Assembly (NCBI GenBank): GCA_963708675.1
Contig: CAVPTO010000003.1
Span: 1,540,719-1,604,718, forward strand
Reading direction: 5' to 3'
Source: an uncultured Planctomycetota bacterium
GTDB lineage: Bacteria; Planctomycetota; Planctomycetia; Pirellulales; PNKZ01
DNA: 64,000 nt
In this document: positions 19,270-61,154 of the stretch, piece by piece
Numbering within the stretch: position 1 is the first letter of the stretch
Layout of the letters: every line of letters starts with the position of its first letter
Program-made: the position numbers and the translations under genes
The notes under the pieces: model-generated
Told to the model about the DNA's origin: nothing
Database searches by the model: none
What the model saw: the letters and a program-made list of their open reading frames with translations, nothing else

Positions 19270-20204
19270 CTACTCGCGTAATACGATACGCAGGTAGCGC
19301 TGCGTGCGGTCGGCGTCGTGGGGGCGACCGGCGCTGCGGAAGTCGTCGGCGAGATTGCGAAGCATGCGGGCGAGCGAGTCGCGCGGCGTGGCGGGGGTGA
19401 GGTGCGTCGCGTGGTCGAAACCGAAGCCGAGGCCGGCGACGACGTCTTCGAGTTCGTCGAAGGTATAGATCTTTCCGGCGGCGTAAGGATCGATGACCAT
19501 CTCGTCTTCGGCGTGACCGCGCGGGGCGTCGTACTTGACCATGTAACGGCCGGGGATCGGGAGGCCGCGAAGGGGCAAGCCGTGGCGGCGCCCGACGGCG
19601 ATCATGACGTGCGAGAGCATGATCGGGAGGCCCTTGCGCGTGGCGAGGACCTGTTCGAGGGAGCTGTTCGCGGGATCGTCGTAGTTGGCGGCGTTGCCGG
19701 TGAAGCCTTCTTGGACGAAGAGCGCGTCGCATAGGGCTTCGACGGCTTCGCGAGCGGGCAGCTCGCTCAGTTTTCGGGCGCGACGAGATCGCCGACACGC
19801 TCGGCTAACTCGTCGAGTGACTTCAACAATTCGGGTGAACGGATTAGAGGGTTACCGATGCGGGCGACGAGCACCATGCCGCGTTCGAGGTCGAGCTTTT
19901 CGTCCGACGCGATCGCCAGTGCTTCGAACTCACCGACGAGCAGCTCGTCCTGAATCGCCTGCGAGATGCGGCGTGCTCGTGAACGAACCTCGGCCGAGGG
20001 GCTGTCGAGGATCTGATCGAGGGTTGGCAGAGCCGCGACGCCGGCCTGTCGCAACGTGCGTTCGGCGGCCTGGCGATCGGCGAAGCTGTCGCTGTCGAGC
20101 TGTGCTGCGAGGCGCTCAAAGTCGAGCGGCGGCTCGGCGGCTTTTGAAGGCTGCCGACTTGGCAGCAGAAGCGTCAGAACGATGACCATCGCGGTGCGTC
20201 GCAT
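19270..20204 (-). pseudogene. secreted transglutaminase-like / SirB1-family protein with an apparent frameshift at the A4 run (plus-strand TTTT 19771-19774)
   Basis: ORF 19767..20261 ends ...SLDELAERVGDLVAPEN*. The next frame reads (A)RKLSELPAREAVEALCDALFVQEGFTGNAANYDDPANSSLEQVLATRKGLPIMLSHVMIAVGRRHGLP... and has no ATG/GTG/TTG upstream of 19620. One extra A fuses the two frames. Start MRRTAMVIVLTLLL at 20204. Confidence 0.75.
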
Positions 20205-20245: not shown

Positions 20246-20281
20246 AAAAACGGCGGGCCAACCCTCTTGGTTGACCCGCCG
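20246..20281 (-). terminator. rho-independent terminator of the YTV-repeat gene
   Basis: On the minus strand: CGGCGGGTCAACC-aagag-GGTTGGCCCGCCG followed by TTTTT, 60 nt after the stop at 20340. Confidence 0.65.
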
Positions 20282-20339
20282 TCTTTATGACAACCAGGCC
20301 CTCTTCACATGCGTCGAAGAGGCGTGACGTTTTAACTAA

Positions 20340-22664
20340 CTACTGGCCACAGCAAGGCGACGAGCACGGAGCAGGGCAGCAGCAAGTCGGAACCGGGCAG
20401 CAAACGCAGACCGGAACTTGCTTGCAGACAACCCGCGGGCAGCAGCGAGTGACCGTGTAGGCCACTTGCTTGGGCACGCAGCGAGTGCAGTTCACCGTCT
20501 TGGTGTAATGCACCGGCTTGCAGACCGTGTACGCAACCTGCTTGGTGCACTTCTCGGGCACCATGGTGCAGACCGTGTACGGGCACTGCATGCTCTTGCA
20601 CTCGGCAACCATCTTGCAGCACGTGTAGGTGCACGTCTTGGTGCGTTGCTCGGGGACCATACGGCACACCGTGTAAGTGCACGTCTTGTGGCACTGTTCG
20701 GGGACCATGTGGCAGACCGTGTACGAGCAGGTCTTGGTGCGCTGTTCGGGCACCATGTGGCAGACCGTGTACGTGCAAGTCTTGACGCACTGTTCGGGAA
20801 CCATCTTGCAGACCTTATACGTGCAGGTCTTGGTGCGTTGTTCGGGCACCATGTGGCAGACCGTGTACGTGCAAGTCTTCGTGCGGCACTCGGGCACCAT
20901 GCGGCAGGTGGTGTACGTGCAGGTCTTGTGGCAGACCTCGGGAACCATCTTGCAGCAGGTGTAGGTGCAGGTCTTCTTGCAGACCTCGGGCACCATGTGG
21001 CAGACCTTGTAGGTGCAGGTCTTGTGGCACACTTCCGGCACCATCTTGCAGCAGGTGTAGGTGCAAGTCTTGTGGCAGACTTCGGGCACCATCTTGCAGC
21101 AGGTGTAAGTGCAGGTCTTGTGGCAGACCTCTGGAACCATCTTGCAGACGGTCCAGGTGCAGGTCTTCGTGCGCTGCTCGGGCACCATCTTGCAGACGGT
21201 GTACGGGACGCGCTTCTCGTGGCATTCCTTGACCATATGGCAAACGGTGTAGCAGCAGGTCTTCTTGCAGACCTCGGGAACCATCGTGCACACCGTGTAC
21301 GGGCACTGCTTGACGCAGGTTTCGGCAACCATCTTGCAGCAGTTAATGGTCTGCTGCTTGACTTCCGGAACCCACACTTGCTTGCAGCACTTGATCGACG
21401 GGCACTGGCATTGAACCGTGCGGCACGGTCCGGCCTTGTACACGCAGCGGCAGCAGCAAGGATCCCACACCCAACAACCCGGGTCTTGCACGCAACGAGT
21501 GACTACCGGGCCTGGCTTTTCGCAAACTTGCGTTTCCCAGTGACCGCAGCAGACGTTGATCGTCTTGGTGAAGTGGACGGGCTTGCAGACCGTGTAGCAG
21601 ACGTCGCGAGTCTTCGTCTCATACACGGGCTTGCAGACGGTGTAGCAAATTTCCTTGGTCTTGGTCTCGTACACCGGCTTGCAGGTGGTGTAGTGGCAGA
21701 CCTTTTCGCGAGTCTCGTAGACCGGCTTGCAGACGGTGTAGCAAATGTCTTTACTGCACGTCTCGTAGACGGGCTTGCAGACCGTATAGCAAATGTCCTT
21801 GGTCTTCGTTTCGTAGACCGGCTTGCAGACCGTGTAGCAGATATCCTTGGTCTTGGTCTCGTAGACCGGCTTGCAGACCGTGTAGCAGATATCCTTGGTC
21901 TTCGTCTCCCACACCGGCTTGCAGACCGTGTAGCAGATGTCCTTGGTCTTCGTTTCGTAGACCGGCTTGCAGACGGTGTAGCAAATGTCCTTGGAGTGAG
22001 TCTCGTACACCGGCTTGCACACCGTGTACGGGATTTCCTTGGTGCGGGTCTCGTAGACCGGCTTGCAGACCGTGTAGCAAATGTCCTTTGAGAACGTCTC
22101 CCACACTGGCTTGCACACCGTGTAGCAGATGTTCTTGGTCTTCGTTTCGTAGACCGGCTTGCACACGGTGTAGCAAATGTTCTTGGTCTTTGTTTCGTAG
22201 ACCGGTTTGCAGACCGTGTAGCAGATGTCCTTGGTCTTCGTCTCGTAGACCGGCTTGCAGACCGTGTAGCAGATGTCCTTGCTGAACGTCTCGTACACCG
22301 GCTTGCAGACCGTGTAGTTCACCGTGCGGTATTTGGTCTCGTAGACCGGTTTGCAAACGGTGTACTCACAGGTCTTGTAGCACGTCTCGGCGACGTACTT
22401 CACGCAATCGATCGTCTTCGGCTCGCAGACCGTCTCGTAGCAGGTCTTGTAGCAGGTATAGTTCTGCTGCTCGTAGACCACTTCACGACAGGTCTTCATG
22501 ACTGTGTGGCATTGCTGCCGGCAACATGCGTAGCTGGCCGTATCGCAGCACGCCGATGCACAACACTTGTAACGGGCTGCACCGCACCATGCGGCGTCAG
22601 CTGATGCTGCCGACATGACCGTCAATACGACGGCGAATATCGGCACCCCCAACAGAGATTTCAT
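20340..22664 (-). CDS. secreted Cys-rich YTV-repeat protein (17 + 17 tandem 16-aa repeats)
   Basis: GGAGGA Shine-Dalgarno, then MKSLLGVPIFAVVLTVMSAASADA signal peptide. 17 copies of YTVCKPVYETKTKDIC, then a Cys-rich linker, then 17 copies of (T)YTVCHMVPEQRTKTC. Matches the Pfam YTV repeat family first described in Rhodopirellula. Confidence 0.85.
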   Translation of the reverse strand: MKSLLGVPIFAVVLTVMSAASADAAWCGAARYKCCASACCDTASYACCRQQCHTVMKTCREVVYEQQNYTCYKTCYETVCEPKTIDCVKYVAETCYKTCEYTVCKPVYETKYRTVNYTVCKPVYETFSKDICYTVCKPVYETKTKDICYTVCKPVYETKTKNICYTVCKPVYETKTKNICYTVCKPVWETFSKDICYTVCKPVYETRTKEIPYTVCKPVYETHSKDICYTVCKPVYETKTKDICYTVCKPVWETKTKDICYTVCKPVYETKTKDICYTVCKPVYETKTKDICYTVCKPVYETCSKDICYTVCKPVYETREKVCHYTTCKPVYETKTKEICYTVCKPVYETKTRDVCYTVCKPVHFTKTINVCCGHWETQVCEKPGPVVTRCVQDPGCWVWDPCCCRCVYKAGPCRTVQCQCPSIKCCKQVWVPEVKQQTINCCKMVAETCVKQCPYTVCTMVPEVCKKTCCYTVCHMVKECHEKRVPYTVCKMVPEQRTKTCTWTVCKMVPEVCHKTCTYTCCKMVPEVCHKTCTYTCCKMVPEVCHKTCTYKVCHMVPEVCKKTCTYTCCKMVPEVCHKTCTYTTCRMVPECRTKTCTYTVCHMVPEQRTKTCTYKVCKMVPEQCVKTCTYTVCHMVPEQRTKTCSYTVCHMVPEQCHKTCTYTVCRMVPEQRTKTCTYTCCKMVAECKSMQCPYTVCTMVPEKCTKQVAYTVCKPVHYTKTVNCTRCVPKQVAYTVTRCCPRVVCKQVPVCVCCPVPTCCCPAPCSSPCCGQ
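20487..21302 (-). repeat. coding tandem repeat block B: 17 x 48 bp (xYTVCxMVPExxxKTC)
   Basis: Counted directly from the translation: aa 466-737 of ORF 20340..22697. Confidence 0.9.
21549..22364 (-). repeat. coding tandem repeat block A: 17 x 48 bp (YTVCKPVYETKTKDIC)
   Basis: Counted directly from the translation: aa 112-383 of ORF 20340..22697. Confidence 0.9.
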
Positions 22665-23264
22665 AGTTGTTGCCTCCTCCAAGACATCGCAGTTCACCGG
22701 GCCTGGTTGGAACGGGCGCGTGGGCCCGCTCTTACTAATGAGGTCGTCTTATGCATATGTCGTGCATTAGCCAGCTTGCCCAAGTACCTCATCCATGAAG
22801 AACCTGTTAACGGTTCGGGGCATGTGCAAGCTGTGCATATTGACGCCTCTTATCGAATGCTATCGGACCGCCTGGGCAGCTAGCTTAAGGTGGGAAGCAT
22901 GCATAAATTGAAGATGATCGTGCTCACCAGGTAAGCCAGGCATAGTGCGCTCGCTCATGCCGCGAGTTACGATCCCGCCACGTAAGCCATGAGCGCCGGT
23001 GCCGATGGCCTACGCCCCCCGTTGCACTCGAAGCGATTGTGTCGAATGTGCGGCTTCTAACGGCGAACTTCCGTCGCTTGTCGTGCGAATGCAAATCTTG
23101 GCAGGCCTCGCGTTTGACAGCGCCAACGACGTGACCTACGTACCTTAGCGGGGATTCGTAGCGATCCCGTGTTCGCCCCACTGACCGTCACGGCCAACGG
23201 CCGGTCAGTTCGGTCCCAGGCAGGCGTTGCAAACAGAGCCACACAAAAACGAAGGGTCCGTGCA

Positions 23265-23717
23265 ATGAGTCAGCGTAAAAAGCGCAATGCAGGTTTCACG
23301 TTGGTCGAAGTGCTGATCGTGGTCGTCATCATGGCGATCCTGGCCGCGACCGTTATTCCGCAGTTCTCGAACTCGACGAACGATGCGAAGAGCAGCACCG
23401 CGAAGTTCAACCTGAACACGCTGCGTTCGCAGGTCGAACTCTACAAGTCGCAGCACAACGGTTCGCTGCCCAGCCAGACGCTCGTCGAGCTCACCAGCCA
23501 GACGAACGCGACGGGCACCACCGGAACGGGAACGAACTTCCCCTACGGCCCGTACGTGCAGACGATCCCGGTCAACCCGTACACCAGCAGCAACACTGTT
23601 GTCGCGGCCGGCGCGAACCCGCCGACATCGACGATCAGCGGCGCCGGTTGGTTGTTTGACCTCGGCAGCGGAAAGATCTGGATTAACGACACGACCACGC
23701 CGTTCGCCTCGCAATGA
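23265..23717 (+). CDS. prepilin-type N-terminal cleavage/methylation domain protein (type II secretion / type IV pseudopilin-like)
   Basis: MSQRKKRNAGFTLVEVLIVVVIMAILAATVIPQF has the canonical G|FTLVE prepilin motif. ATG at 23265. Confidence 0.85.
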   Translation: MSQRKKRNAGFTLVEVLIVVVIMAILAATVIPQFSNSTNDAKSSTAKFNLNTLRSQVELYKSQHNGSLPSQTLVELTSQTNATGTTGTGTNFPYGPYVQTIPVNPYTSSNTVVAAGANPPTSTISGAGWLFDLGSGKIWINDTTTPFASQ

Positions 23718-23757
23718 GGCTTCGAGCTAGCACTGTCTGATCCTGGACCGATCATCG

Positions 23758-23797
23758 AAGGCCCTGGCACGAAGCGATTCGCGTCAGGGCCTTTTCG
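23758..23797 (+). terminator. rho-independent terminator after the pseudopilin gene
   Basis: AAGGCCCTG-(18 nt)-CAGGGCCTT followed by TTCGTG, starting 41 nt after the stop. Confidence 0.55.
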
Positions 23798-23826
23798 TGC
23801 GCGCTTCGGAAACGCGGGCACATGTA

Positions 23827-23943
23827 CATAAAGCCGCGACCGGTGGTCGCGCTCCGCGGGCGACGCTCAACGACAAATCGCCATTTCGCATGGAATCTGG
23901 GGAACATCACACGCGGAGCGCGACCACCGGTCGCGGCTTTATG
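23827..23943. repeat. perfect 32-bp inverted repeat pair (REP-like element), 53-nt spacer
   Basis: 23827-23858 CATAAAGCCGCGACCGGTGGTCGCGCTCCGCG is the exact reverse complement of 23912-23943. Each arm holds its own small hairpin, GCGACC-nnn-GGTCGC. Confidence 0.9.
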
Positions 23944-24053
23944 GCACGGCACCCTTCCCTTGTCGTTGTAAGCACAGCCGCGTAAAGTGTTACCGATCAC
24001 TCCCAGGGGCGGCAGACGGTCTCGCGCCGCCACGGCAGGCCGCGACGCGGAAC

Positions 24054-24734
24054 ATGGGCGAAGCCAAAGACAAAACCGACGGTCCGTCTCCCGAGCCTGC
24101 GGTCCCCAAAGCGGTTGTCAGCCGCCTCAGCCTTTATCTCCGCGAGCTTCAGCACTTGGTTCGCGATGGTCACGACACGACCAGCAGCAGCCAACTCGGC
24201 CGAGTCCTCGGCTTCACCGATGCCCAGGTCCGCAAGGATCTCGCCTATTTCGGGCACTTCGGCTACCCAGGCATCGGCTATCGCTGCGAAGAGTTGATTG
24301 CTGCCGTGAAACGCATCCTCGGTACCGACCAGCAATGGCCGGCGGCACTCATCGGGGTCGGCAACCTCGGCCGCGCGCTTTTGGGCTATAAGGGCTTCCA
24401 GCAGCGCGGATTTCGCATCGTGGCGGCGTTCGACCTCGATCCCTCACGCATTGACACGGAAATCGACGGCGTCCATGTGTACCACCTCGACCGCCTTCAG
24501 GAACTCGCAGAAGTCCACACGATTCGGCTCGCGATGCTTGCCGTTCCTTCCGTCGCGGCACAATCGGTGGCCGACCGGCTGGTGAGCGTCGGTGTCGAAG
24601 GGATTCTCAACTTCGCCCCCGTGACGATCTCGCTGCCAGAAAGCGTGAGCTTGATCGGCGTCGACCTCGCCATCGAACTCGAGCAATTGGCGTTCTCCGT
24701 CGCCAAACGCTCGACGCCTCGCCCGATGACGTAG
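24054..24734 (+). CDS. rex: redox-sensing transcriptional repressor Rex
   Basis: VSRLSLYLRELQHLVRDGHDTTSSSQLGRVLGFTDAQVRKDLAYFGHFGYPGIGY...ALIGVGNLGRALLGY: Rex winged helix plus a Rossmann GxGxxG. Confidence 0.9.
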   Translation: MGEAKDKTDGPSPEPAVPKAVVSRLSLYLRELQHLVRDGHDTTSSSQLGRVLGFTDAQVRKDLAYFGHFGYPGIGYRCEELIAAVKRILGTDQQWPAALIGVGNLGRALLGYKGFQQRGFRIVAAFDLDPSRIDTEIDGVHVYHLDRLQELAEVHTIRLAMLAVPSVAAQSVADRLVSVGVEGILNFAPVTISLPESVSLIGVDLAIELEQLAFSVAKRSTPRPMT

Positions 24735-26421: not shown

Positions 26422-26492
26422 TACCCGGTGGTGTAATGGTAACACTGGAGATTTTGGCTCTCCCATTCAAGGTTCGAGTCCTTGCCGGGTAG
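26422..26492 (+). tRNA. tRNA-Gln (anticodon UUG)
   Basis: Cloverleaf folded by hand: acceptor TACCCGG/CCGGGTA (U1-A72, typical of bacterial tRNA-Gln), anticodon arm GGAGA-TTTTGGC-TCTCC, T-arm CAAGG-TTCGAGT-CCTTG. Confidence 0.9.
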
Positions 26493-34079: not shown

Positions 34080-34154
34080 CGGGGCGTAGCTCAGCCTGGC
34101 TAGAGCGTCTGGTTTGGGACCAGAAGGTCGCAGGTTCGAATCCTGTCGCCCCGA
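34080..34154 (+). tRNA. tRNA-Pro (anticodon UGG)
   Basis: Acceptor CGGGGCG/CGCCCCG, anticodon arm TCTGG-TTTGGGA-CCAGA, T-arm GCAGG-TTCGAAT-CCTGT. Confidence 0.9.
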
Positions 34155-49205: not shown

Positions 49206-49287
<82 letters not shown>

Positions 49288-61080: not shown

Positions 61081-61154
61081 GCGCCCGTAGCTCAACTGGA
61101 TAGAGCAGCGGACTTCTAATCCGCAGGTTACAGGTTCGATTCCTGTCGGGCGTA
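61081..61154 (+). tRNA. tRNA-Arg (anticodon UCU)
   Basis: Acceptor GCGCCCG/CGGGCGT, D-arm GCTC-AACTGGATA-GAGC, anticodon arm GCGGA-CTTCTAA-TCCGC, T-arm ACAGG-TTCGATT-CCTGT. Confidence 0.85.

Follow-up and report, generated by a model that had tools for sequence, protein, structure and literature searches.

Mirror-image co-variation of two repeat arms points to a long β-hairpin in a planctomycete YTV-family protein

The window, by which we mean the whole 64,000-nucleotide stretch of DNA from an uncultured Planctomycetota bacterium analysed here, carries on its reverse strand a gene for a large repeat protein (Table 1). The reading frame (20340..22664) opens with an ATG at 22664 and closes with a stop codon at 20342-20340; an in-frame GTG at 22697 is a second possible start. 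The initial annotation credited the gene with its own Shine-Dalgarno sequence and a clean terminator, and both stand: GGAGGAGG lies 8 nt before the ATG, and the downstream hairpin (20246-20286) folds at -33.3 kcal/mol (z = -4.84), a stability reached by 0/200 shuffles. No sigma-70-like promoter emerged from a consensus scan, which also missed this terminator; direct folding confirms the terminator. No paralog of the YTV gene was found elsewhere in the window by tblastn. Rex is upstream and divergent in 54/79 ortholog loci, with the pseudopilin in between in 35/79.

Table 1. Features of the YTV gene and its surroundings, in window coordinates.
Feature	Position	Strand	Basis or remark
CDS of 774-aa YTV-family protein	20340..22664	-	ORF list, Pfam PF07639, positional orthologs
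Shine-Dalgarno GGAGGAGG	22673..22680	-	8-nt spacer to ATG; read from sequence
Putative signal peptide, aa 1-24 (MKSLLGVPIFAVVLTVMSAASADA)	22593..22664	-	Read from sequence: K, hydrophobic core, ASADA
N-terminal Cys cluster, aa 25-52, 8 Cys	22509..22592	-	Open hairpin end (predicted); low AlphaFold2 confidence
Degenerate units, arm-1 base, aa 53-100 (QCHTVMKT...CVKYVAETCYKTCE)	22365..22508	-	phmmer anchor
Arm 1 (block 1): 17 x 16-aa YTVCKPV[YW]ETKTKDIC, aa 101-372	21549..22364	-	TRF, 16-aa register
Predicted hairpin tip region, aa 373-452, 16 Cys	21309..21548	-	Conserved central anchor in orthologs; AlphaFold2
Arm 2 (block 2): 16 x 16-aa YTVC[KH]MVPE(Q/V)(R/C)xKTCT, aa 456-711	20532..21299	-	TRF, 16-aa register
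Closing KPV-type unit and conserved tail strand, aa 712-751 (YTVCKPVHYTKTVNCTRCVPKQVAYTVTRCCPRVVCKQVP)	20412..20531	-	TAIL anchor, AlphaFold2
C-terminal Cys/Pro tail, aa 752-774 (9 Cys, 5 Pro)	20343..20411	-	Low pLDDT from ~aa 760
Intrinsic terminator: 18-bp stem, then U-tract UUUUUCUUU	20246..20286	-	RNA folding and sequence
Divergent neighbours (context only): pseudopilin-like gene (N_methyl + T2SSG) 23169-23717; Rex 24054-24734	23169..24734	+	Pfam

Each half of the gene contains arrays with a 48-bp period according to Tandem Repeats Finder (TRF). The 17 copies annotated for block 1 (21549-22364) are recovered identically in a 16-aa register (aa 101-372). Seventeen units likewise occupy 20487-21302, where the annotation had placed 17 copies of the second repeat, but only 16 are of the MVPE type and the last, YTVCKPVHYTKTV, resembles block 1. 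The intervening linker is Cys-dense as described, although its quoted length of 82 aa depends on the register, the middle segment measuring 80-82 aa. This tip region reads CGHWE..PGPVV..CWVWDPCCCRC..CPSIKCCKQVWVPE.., and it ends in two degenerate arm-2 units that take up ~32 aa. A conserved N anchor at the base of arm 1 (aa 53-100) is present in most orthologs (phmmer). The composition is rich in Thr (15%), Val (14%), Lys (11.5%) and Glu (6%), and Cys, put earlier at about 20%, counts 127/774 (16.4%), concentrated in the tip (16) and at the predicted open end (8 N-terminal and 9 C-terminal), and periodic along the shaft.

The protein matches the Pfam YTV profile (PF07639) over 23 stretches (E = 1.8e-214; 694 bits, the gathering score being 21). 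No other Pfam family matches at E <= 1, and NCBIfam gives no match. The apparent n-h-c signal with ASADA, read from the sequence rather than called by a predictor, has a layout shared by orthologs. The 79 related loci are all from Planctomycetia or from less resolved MAGs labelled Planctomycetia/Planctomycetota, under the labels Pirellulales, Pirellulaceae, Lacipirellulaceae, Thermoguttaceae and Planctomycetaceae; named protein matches come from Pirellulaceae, Pirellulales, Planctomycetota and Gemmata. With its profile match, Planctomycetia-only distribution, export (by the signal read from sequence) and Cys richness, the gene joins the known YTV family as a new member, and its description as a secreted, Cys-rich YTV repeat protein with a signal peptide is upheld. 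The exact protein sequence is absent from a 153-billion-gene index; the closest match in a large protein collection is ~50% identical and the closest genomic ortholog 72% identical.

The same annotation regarded the YTV family as lacking a known function, which the literature contradicts: YTV proteins are major components of the SDS-resistant cell walls of planctomycetes, and Planctopirus limnophila has a YTV gene that is essential (PMC8567305, PMC5287468, PMC12673574, PMC10632474). SDS-insoluble wall preparations yield other YTV members (PMC5287468, PMC8567305). The present protein is like the YTV wall proteins of R. baltica, G. obscuriglobus, T. immobilis and P. limnophila in PF07639, secretion and Cys richness. 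More distant YTV members likewise have two repeat blocks flanking a conserved centre, and compared with other YTV proteins the present copy, at 17+17, is among the longer and more regular ones. YTV cell-wall proteins of R. baltica were reportedly described by Hieu et al. in 2008. In the accessible literature (Hieu 2008 and Mahajan 2020 being outside this scope) we found no structural model for YTV proteins and no description of the paired-arm, mirror-symmetric architecture developed below, which seems to be undescribed so far.

At the DNA level, the repeat units are not recently homogenised. The blocks had been called internally homogenised, which fails for the DNA: identical peptide units carry synonymous differences, mean identity between units is 77% in block 1 and 69% in block 2, between-unit dS is ~0.7 and dN/dS 0.19-0.29. 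Given this divergence and a longest exact DNA repeat of 44 bp, collapsed assembly is unlikely for this window. We also considered a DNA-level palindrome as the source of the mirror symmetry described below and rejected it; the inverted repeats between the two blocks are all short, at 20-28 nt and 75-80% complementarity.

The equality of the two blocks was proposed to be meaningful, and comparison of repeat number among relatives bears this out. Using the N, central and TAIL anchors to delimit the blocks in 43 complete orthologs, we found that block 1 exceeds block 2 by exactly 4 aa in 30/43, although these orthologs are phylogenetically related and the count overstates the number of independent events. 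The 4-aa offset holds over 17 different block lengths, the shortest 128 aa and the longest 336 aa, and 100,000 permutations gave a mean of 2.5 and a maximum of 11 such orthologs, against the 30 observed. Nine of the 43 orthologs come from long-read or complete assemblies, and none of the nine breaks the rule: eight have an offset of exactly 4 aa and one (L069) of -1. The same offset recurs in distant subfamilies at 30-50% identity (P0001, P0002, P0009, P0010, P0014, P0017, P0066, P0082). Unit numbers in relatives run from 8 + 8 up to 29 + 28. The rule is broken by whole units in 11/43 orthologs, and 11/11 of these are short-read MAGs, where assembly error is a possible cause. These comparisons point to the 17+17 symmetry as one instance of a conserved rule. 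A 29-unit giant (L030), measured by hand outside the 43, has blocks of 450 and 446 aa; it is a tenth long-read or complete assembly that fits the 4-aa offset.

The order of the units is mirrored as well. In orthologs that mix 14- and 16-aa units, the block-2 order is the reverse of the block-1 order in 86/86 unit pairs, while all alternative mirror or parallel shifts match at <=73%, and the L030 giant shows the mirrored order in 27/27. Unit-length matching places the tip-side mirror register at an offset of two units. Correlating simple Cys/Cys indicators across the arms gave a signal swamped by the 16-aa periodicity, which left mirror and parallel arrangements inseparable; unit-length matching and APC-corrected mutual information (MI) took the place of this approach. 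At the residue level, the variant units ..EKVCH in arm 1 and MVKECHEKRVP in arm 2 occur together only at mirror partners (OR 74, p = 3e-18), the association being absent at neighbouring shifts. Mutual information between unit positions is concentrated on one anti-diagonal, at p+q = 26 for the partner unit and p+q = 10 for the next unit, both corresponding to i+j = 805; the APC-corrected value is 0.060, whereas 200 shuffles did not exceed 0.026. Across the ortholog sequences the arms thus co-vary in mirror image in length, unit-length order and residues, which argues that the two blocks pair with each other.

AlphaFold2 predicts a hairpin. In the full-length model, strands E50-113/E694-757 and E311-383/E424-496 pair with i+j = 807 throughout and pLDDT 70-89. 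The pairing was read from DSSP boundaries rather than contacts, and the register differs by two residues from the 805 given by covariation. The N anchor (pLDDT 80-86) faces aa 712-751 in the model, with strand E694-757 mirroring E50-113. The tip (aa 373-452) folds into four short paired strands at pLDDT 80-91, with a predicted turn at aa 402-405 (PCCC, 21450-21461). Mid-arm pLDDT is below 50 in both arms of the full-length model, and the models reach a pTM of just 0.24-0.25. An artificial symmetric mini-construct of 6+6 units gave strands E48-207 and E248-407, of 160 residues each, at a mean pLDDT of 73.5. AlphaFold2 may be prone to long hairpins for β-rich repeats.

From this evidence we think it probable that the two blocks are the paired arms of one long β-hairpin in a Sec-exported envelope protein. 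After removal of the signal peptide, the chain would fold back at the Cys-rich tip, turning near aa 402-405, so that arm 1 (aa ~48-383, 17 KPVYET units) would lie antiparallel to arm 2 (aa ~424-759, 16 MVPE units), with block-1 unit k facing block-2 unit 16-k in a register of i+j = 805-807. Gain or loss of a unit, or a 2-residue shortening, in one arm would be tolerated in the long term only with a mirror change opposite, because each unit needs a partner; the result would be 17 + 17 units here and 8 + 8 to 29 + 28 in relatives. We further infer the physical length of this protein, its location in the wall and its intermolecular disulfides: the product would be one two-stranded β-ribbon with ~336 residues in each strand, which would measure roughly 110 nm at full extension and whose cysteines, mostly not opposed within the ribbon, would cross-link ribbons and perhaps other wall proteins into the SDS-resistant proteinaceous wall layer of planctomycetes. 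An elongated, rod-like structure outside the cell or in its envelope, as first suggested, remains the best reading. The intramolecular disulfide ladder suggested with it finds no such backing, since only 2-4 Cys pairs face each other at i+j = 805-807. Cross-strand disulfides in other registers were also considered, and those that would oppose many cysteines (798, 803, 810 and 814) are unsupported by AlphaFold2 or MI.

Much of this evidence would also be expected if the arms paired between chains, arm 1 with another chain's arm 2, in a closed antiparallel dimer or a domain-swapped polymer (A1-B2, B1-C2, ...). An antiparallel homodimer or runaway domain swap predicts the same equal-length rule, mirror order and anti-diagonal covariation, and pairing between chains suits both a wall-forming polymer and the scarcity of opposed cysteines inside the hairpin; if true, domain-swapped pairing would directly make a network or fibre. 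Against it, AlphaFold2 closes the hairpin in a monomer, placing the turn clearly and modelling the tip with confidence (pLDDT 80-91), and the compact Cys-rich tip is kept in all orthologs, consistent with a fixed turn. We therefore infer intramolecular pairing and judge the intermolecular arrangement unlikely. The original proposal of a solenoid-like fold fares worse. It would make each block an independent disulfide-laddered solenoid separated by a linker, with the equal repeat number incidental or otherwise constrained, and one coil per repeat could in principle accommodate the strict 16-aa period with its two Cys in each unit. Yet the predicted strands run uninterrupted for 64-160 residues without coils, and independent blocks would leave unexplained the 4-aa offset over 17 lengths, the mirrored order of 14- and 16-aa units and the covariation of mirror units. 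This reading is disfavoured, and we give it very little credence.

A chemical rather than mechanical role is also very improbable in our view. A periplasmic thiol/redox buffer or metal-binding protein is suggested by the 127 Cys, the CH/HC motifs, the conserved Cys-His variant unit pair and the adjoining Rex gene. The window nevertheless has fewer matches to the Rex operator TGTGAA-N6-TTCACA (<=3 mismatches) than expected by chance, with none near the gene, and neither Pfam nor NCBIfam detects a metal-binding or thioredoxin-like domain. A structural polymer is favoured by the strong selection acting on arm geometry and by the presence of YTV proteins in SDS-boiled walls.

Searching the PDB with Foldseek, the best matches were lysenin, anthrax PA, aerolysin, MAC/perforin and the phi29 tail, with no others retrieved; TMq was 0.03-0.11, E >= 4e-4 and identity <13%. 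These structures are known for very long antiparallel β-hairpins, and in this they resemble the present prediction, although their hairpins, as far as we know, are far shorter than the predicted ~336 residues per strand and are held in oligomeric barrels. Homology to β-pore-forming toxins was rejected, the TM-score being <=0.11 (criterion > 0.5) and a PDB sequence search giving no match at E < 0.1. To our knowledge there is no free-standing two-stranded ribbon of ~100 nm, so the ribbon may in reality coil or assemble laterally. Borrelia OspA has a single-layer, solvent-exposed β-sheet rich in Thr, Lys, Glu and Val. Its composition is similar to that of the present protein, but its sheet is a short three-stranded segment between globular domains, without repeats, Cys or arm-length covariation. 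In the chlamydial members of the PVC superphylum, the Cys-rich proteins OmcB and OmcA of the disulfide-cross-linked outer membrane complex stiffen the envelope. These offer a functional analogy only, with a different repeat structure and predicted fold and no sequence or domain relation (YTV is the only Pfam match, and NCBIfam has none).

The make-up and assembly of the protein-rich, SDS-resistant planctomycete wall have been debated since the 1980s, and YTV proteins are the best candidates for its material. It is possible, though we stop short of calling it probable, that YTV proteins form a new structural class of free-standing two-stranded β-ribbon hairpins of digital length, joined in a disulfide mesh that partly replaces peptidoglycan mechanically in Planctomycetia. 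If so, the ribbons would be tens to >100 nm long, with length set by matched units in two non-identical arms, the protein counterpart of compensatory changes in RNA helices. The repeat number would then serve as a heritable ruler for some dimension of the wall or periplasm. Mirror co-variation suggests a testable architecture, deduced from genome sequences alone: two arms paired in a hairpin whose ends are rich in Cys and whose length is proportional to the number of repeats. This would be a rare case of protein topology revealed by repeat-number covariation. Unequal arms could also be used as a quality check, as a sign of collapsed repeats in MAGs.

The window protein belongs to the YTV family, with a Pfam match (PF07639) of 694 bits spread over 23 stretches; NCBIfam holds no model for it and no solved structure is related to it by sequence. 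Cell-wall preparations of R. baltica have yielded Cys-rich YTV proteins, as have members of the Gemmataceae, including T. immobilis (PMC8567305, PMC12673574), and in G. obscuriglobus these proteins form "the major constituents" of walls obtained by boiling in 10% SDS (PMC5287468). P. limnophila has few essential genes that are restricted to Planctomycetes, and one of them encodes a YTV protein; the YTV domain has been suggested to take part in regulating wall rigidity (PMC10632474). In the cited literature the family is confined to the class Planctomycetia, and a contact-based modelling study lists it with other repeat families that lack a structural match (PMC8078820). Given this published wall location and essentiality, the statement in the initial annotation that YTV repeats have no known function is out of date (PMC5287468, PMC10632474). 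As a new member of a family that is already known and has been localised by experiment, the gene is ordinary for a Pirellulales genome.

The repeat protein with two blocks of 16-aa units is confirmed by the open reading frame, the unit register and Tandem Repeats Finder, which detects both 48-bp arrays, with some corrections. Block 1 does contain the 17 units claimed, but block 2 reaches 17 only if the closing KPV-type unit is added to its 16 MVPE-type units, and Cys makes up 127/774 residues (16.4%) rather than about 20%. These cysteines are concentrated at the tip, the centre between the two blocks (16), and at the open end (8 + 9), and are periodic along the shaft. A Shine-Dalgarno sequence and a terminator of its own were correctly noted: GGAGGAGG is read 8 nt before the ATG at 22664, and an 18-bp hairpin (−33.3 kcal/mol, z = −4.8) followed by a U-tract lies 54 nt beyond the stop codon, so that the gene looks monocistronic. 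Long open reading frames overlapping it (e.g., 20418-22091, + strand, 557 aa) are by-products of the repeats.

Features of the YTV locus and of the window (aa, residues of the YTV protein)
Feature	Position	Strand	Description
YTV CDS	20340-22664	-	ORF list; 774 aa
Signal peptide			MKSLLGVPIFAVVLTVMSAASADA; typical, read from sequence
Cys cluster	N-terminal, after signal peptide		
Degenerate units	between N-terminal Cys cluster and block 1		a few
Block 1 (arm 1)	aa 101-372		17 x 16-aa YTVCKPV[YW]ETKTKDIC
Cys-dense centre (tip)	between blocks		80 aa, 16 Cys
Block 2 (arm 2)	aa 456-711		16 units YTVC[KH]MVPE..KTCT
C-terminal end			one closing KPV-type unit, conserved strand (..VAYTVTRCCPRVVCKQVP), Cys/Pro tail
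Variant unit pair	aa 319-324 (21693-21710), aa 479-487 (21204-21230)	-	
Pseudopilin-like gene (N_methyl + T2SSG), then Rex redox repressor	23169-24734	+	divergent to YTV
Small ORFs downstream of YTV gene	19270-19620, 19767-20204	-	
Four tRNA genes	26422-26492, 34080-34154, 49206-49287, 61081-61154	+	Rfam

The blocks had been described as internally homogenised, yet units with the same peptide carry differing synonymous sites. At the DNA level the units average 77% identity in block 1 and 69% in block 2, with dS ∼0.7 and dN/dS 0.19-0.29 between units, and the units are therefore not recent copies. This divergence indicates that the 16-aa period is kept by selection on the protein and, as the longest exact DNA repeat in the gene is 44 bp, also makes repeat collapse in its assembly unlikely.

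A search of the protein database returned no record of the exact protein, and a large protein collection gave 185 matches, the best ∼50% identical among the matches listed; of these 120 listed matches, all except three carry a precomputed PF07639 match. A scan with one genome for each species located 79 related loci, all in Pirellulales or other Planctomycetia (best segment identity 72%), which are positional orthologs. As in the window, a divergent Rex gene lies upstream in 54 of them and a pseudopilin-like gene stands between it and the YTV gene in 35, while no conservation is seen among the downstream genes. One layout is common to all relatives: signal peptide, N domain, KPV-type block, conserved centre (GHWE..PGPV..DPCCCRC..CPP..VWVP), MVPE-type block and tail. 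Match length runs from ∼1.2 to 3.4 kb, and repeat number thus varies widely.

Despite this variation, the two blocks keep equal lengths. The N domain, centre and tail were located by phmmer as anchors, and the blocks were measured between them in the 43 proteins with all three. Block 1 exceeds block 2 by exactly 4 aa in 30/43 (272/268 in the window), over 17 block lengths from 128/124 to 336/332; 100,000 permutations gave this offset in a mean of 2.5 and a maximum of 11 proteins. All nine long-read or complete assemblies in the set obey the rule (eight exactly 4 aa; L069, −1), and the 1180-aa ortholog of a complete chromosome (L030) fits it at 450/446, with 29 and 28 units. The offset also holds in subfamilies only 30-50% identical (P0001 and P0002, 144/140; P0009, P0010 and P0017, 80/76; P0014, 112/108; P0066, 96/92; P0082, 94/90). 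The 17 + 17 symmetry first noticed in the window is thus one instance of a wider pattern.

The 11 clear rule-breakers are all short-read MAGs, and their deviations come in whole units (16n, or sums of 14 and 16), as expected if repeats had collapsed or expanded; a putative assembly origin is suggested. The rule could be used as an assembly check for the YTV gene. At least 14 contigs, by name mostly from short-read assemblies, end inside it (L011, L017, L022, L027, L029, L034, L036, L037, L040, L041, L042, L058, L064, L079). P0003 (450 aa, on a 43-kb contig) has ∼9 arm-1 units and almost no arm 2, and in P0004 (448 aa) arm 2 is longer by 30 aa (14 + 16); both cases reflect either errors of assembly or real variants with unequal arms.

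The order of the units is matched as well. In orthologs that mix 14- and 16-aa units, the unit lengths of block 2 read N to C repeat those of block 1 read C to N, in 86/86 unit pairs of nine proteins at a constant two-unit shift, which arises from two degenerate arm-2 units within the central anchor. Other mirror shifts and all parallel alignments reach ≤73%. L030 matches in 27/27 pairs at the same shift, and otherwise in at most 22/28. Since the window gene has no long inverted DNA repeat linking the blocks and tandem duplication can lengthen one block only, the mirror pattern must be maintained by selection on the protein. Equal arms, matched in length and mirror order from 8 to 29 units, are a conserved family-wide rule; we found it nowhere in accessible papers, though an earlier description is possible.

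Residue covariation follows the same geometry. Across the 16 x 16 unit positions, APC-corrected mutual information is highest along one anti-diagonal, at (14,12), (12,14), (16,10) and (13,13) in the partner unit (p+q = 26), with (8,2) and (2,8) the top pairs in the next unit (p+q = 10). Both sums give an absolute antiparallel register of i+j = 805, the sum of the residue numbers facing each other, and the diagonal mean is 0.060, whereas 200 within-protein shuffles never exceeded 0.026. Two variant units, one in arm 1 whose penultimate residue is Cys (..REKVCH; unit 14 of the window protein) and one in arm 2 (MVKECHEKRVP; unit 2), co-occur at mirror partners only (19/29 vs 8/321, OR 74, p = 3e-18), an association absent at neighbouring shifts. 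Register 805 sets C-H against H-C across the ribbon at this conserved pair, which in the window keeps a fixed spacing of three to four units to the tip and could be a specialised site (metal, kink or cross-link point).

For the full-length protein, AlphaFold2 (42 sequences) gives a model of low overall confidence (mean pLDDT 52.8, pTM 0.24). Its long strands (E50-113, E311-383, E424-496, E694-757) are continuous and all symmetric about i+j = 807, with pLDDT 70-89 at both ends of the arms. Because the arm middles are poorly covered by shorter homologs, we also predicted a 422-aa construct with 11 mirror-matched units removed per arm (44 sequences). Its mean pLDDT is 73.5 (80-91 over most of the chain), with two uninterrupted 160-residue strands (E48-207, E248-407) and a tip of four short paired strands closing at aa 402-405 (PCCC; full-length numbering). 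From the symmetry of the strand boundaries, we infer that the arms would be paired in these models. The AlphaFold2 and covariation registers agree within two residues, a difference that leaves the face of the sheet unchanged. Foldseek matched only long-β-hairpin proteins (such as pore-forming toxins and phage tail proteins, all at TM ≤0.11) and nothing else similar to the models.

The blocks are thus constrained to match unit for unit in antiparallel order, and the matched-arm rule together with the AlphaFold2 models implies a giant paired-arm hairpin. The independent solenoids proposed initially, one per block, are disfavoured by the unit-for-unit match and by the continuous, symmetric strands. 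The main rival is pairing of arm 1 with arm 2 between chains, as an antiparallel dimer or domain-swapped polymer, which fits the covariation equally well. Our best inference is intramolecular: both blocks would form the arms of one β-hairpin with ∼336 residues in each strand, which when extended would measure roughly 110 nm, and ∼60-170 nm in relatives. Each unit has a single Pro, at position 6 in arm 1 and at 8 in arm 2, whose pair class is the same in both registers; the geometry is consistent with outward-pointing, non-hydrogen-bonded positions. Registers 805-807 bring only 2-4 pairs of Cys opposite one another; by further inference, disulfides would mainly join ribbon to ribbon and so produce the wall fabric, resistant to SDS, that is known for the family. 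A redox or metal role is supported only circumstantially, by the neighbouring Rex gene, and the window yielded no Rex operator. With the paired-arm hairpin, the planctomycete protein wall gains a concrete, falsifiable structural model.

Of the small downstream open reading frames, one aligns to Transglut_core2 solely over its C-terminal half (profile 69-155 of 155) and is perhaps truncated or read from a wrong start; the other (145 aa) has a hydrophobic, signal-like N-terminus, no Pfam match and, among the ortholog loci, a homolog at L016 alone. Across the 64 kb of the window, Rfam matches at the gathering threshold are limited to the tRNA genes. Many of the "proteins" in databases, and some loci of long-read MAGs, are YTV genes translated after a shift of frame (P0006, P0011, P0015, P0018, P0019, P0020, P0035, P0037, P0059, L021, L025, L065), with stretches such as LLHGLQAGLRNQD or ATRSASRS that the repeats encode in their other two frames; P0011 resembles a copy, broken by many frameshifts, of a gene closely related to that of the window. 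In the subfamily of P0001, P0005, P0009, P0010, P0017, P0024 and P0040, arms and tip are kept, most shaft Cys are replaced by W, R, T or Y, and a ∼150-aa C-terminal extension has a TPR-like look (PF14559 recorded for P0001, PF13432 for P0024). Members with clean anchors still show the 4-aa arm offset.
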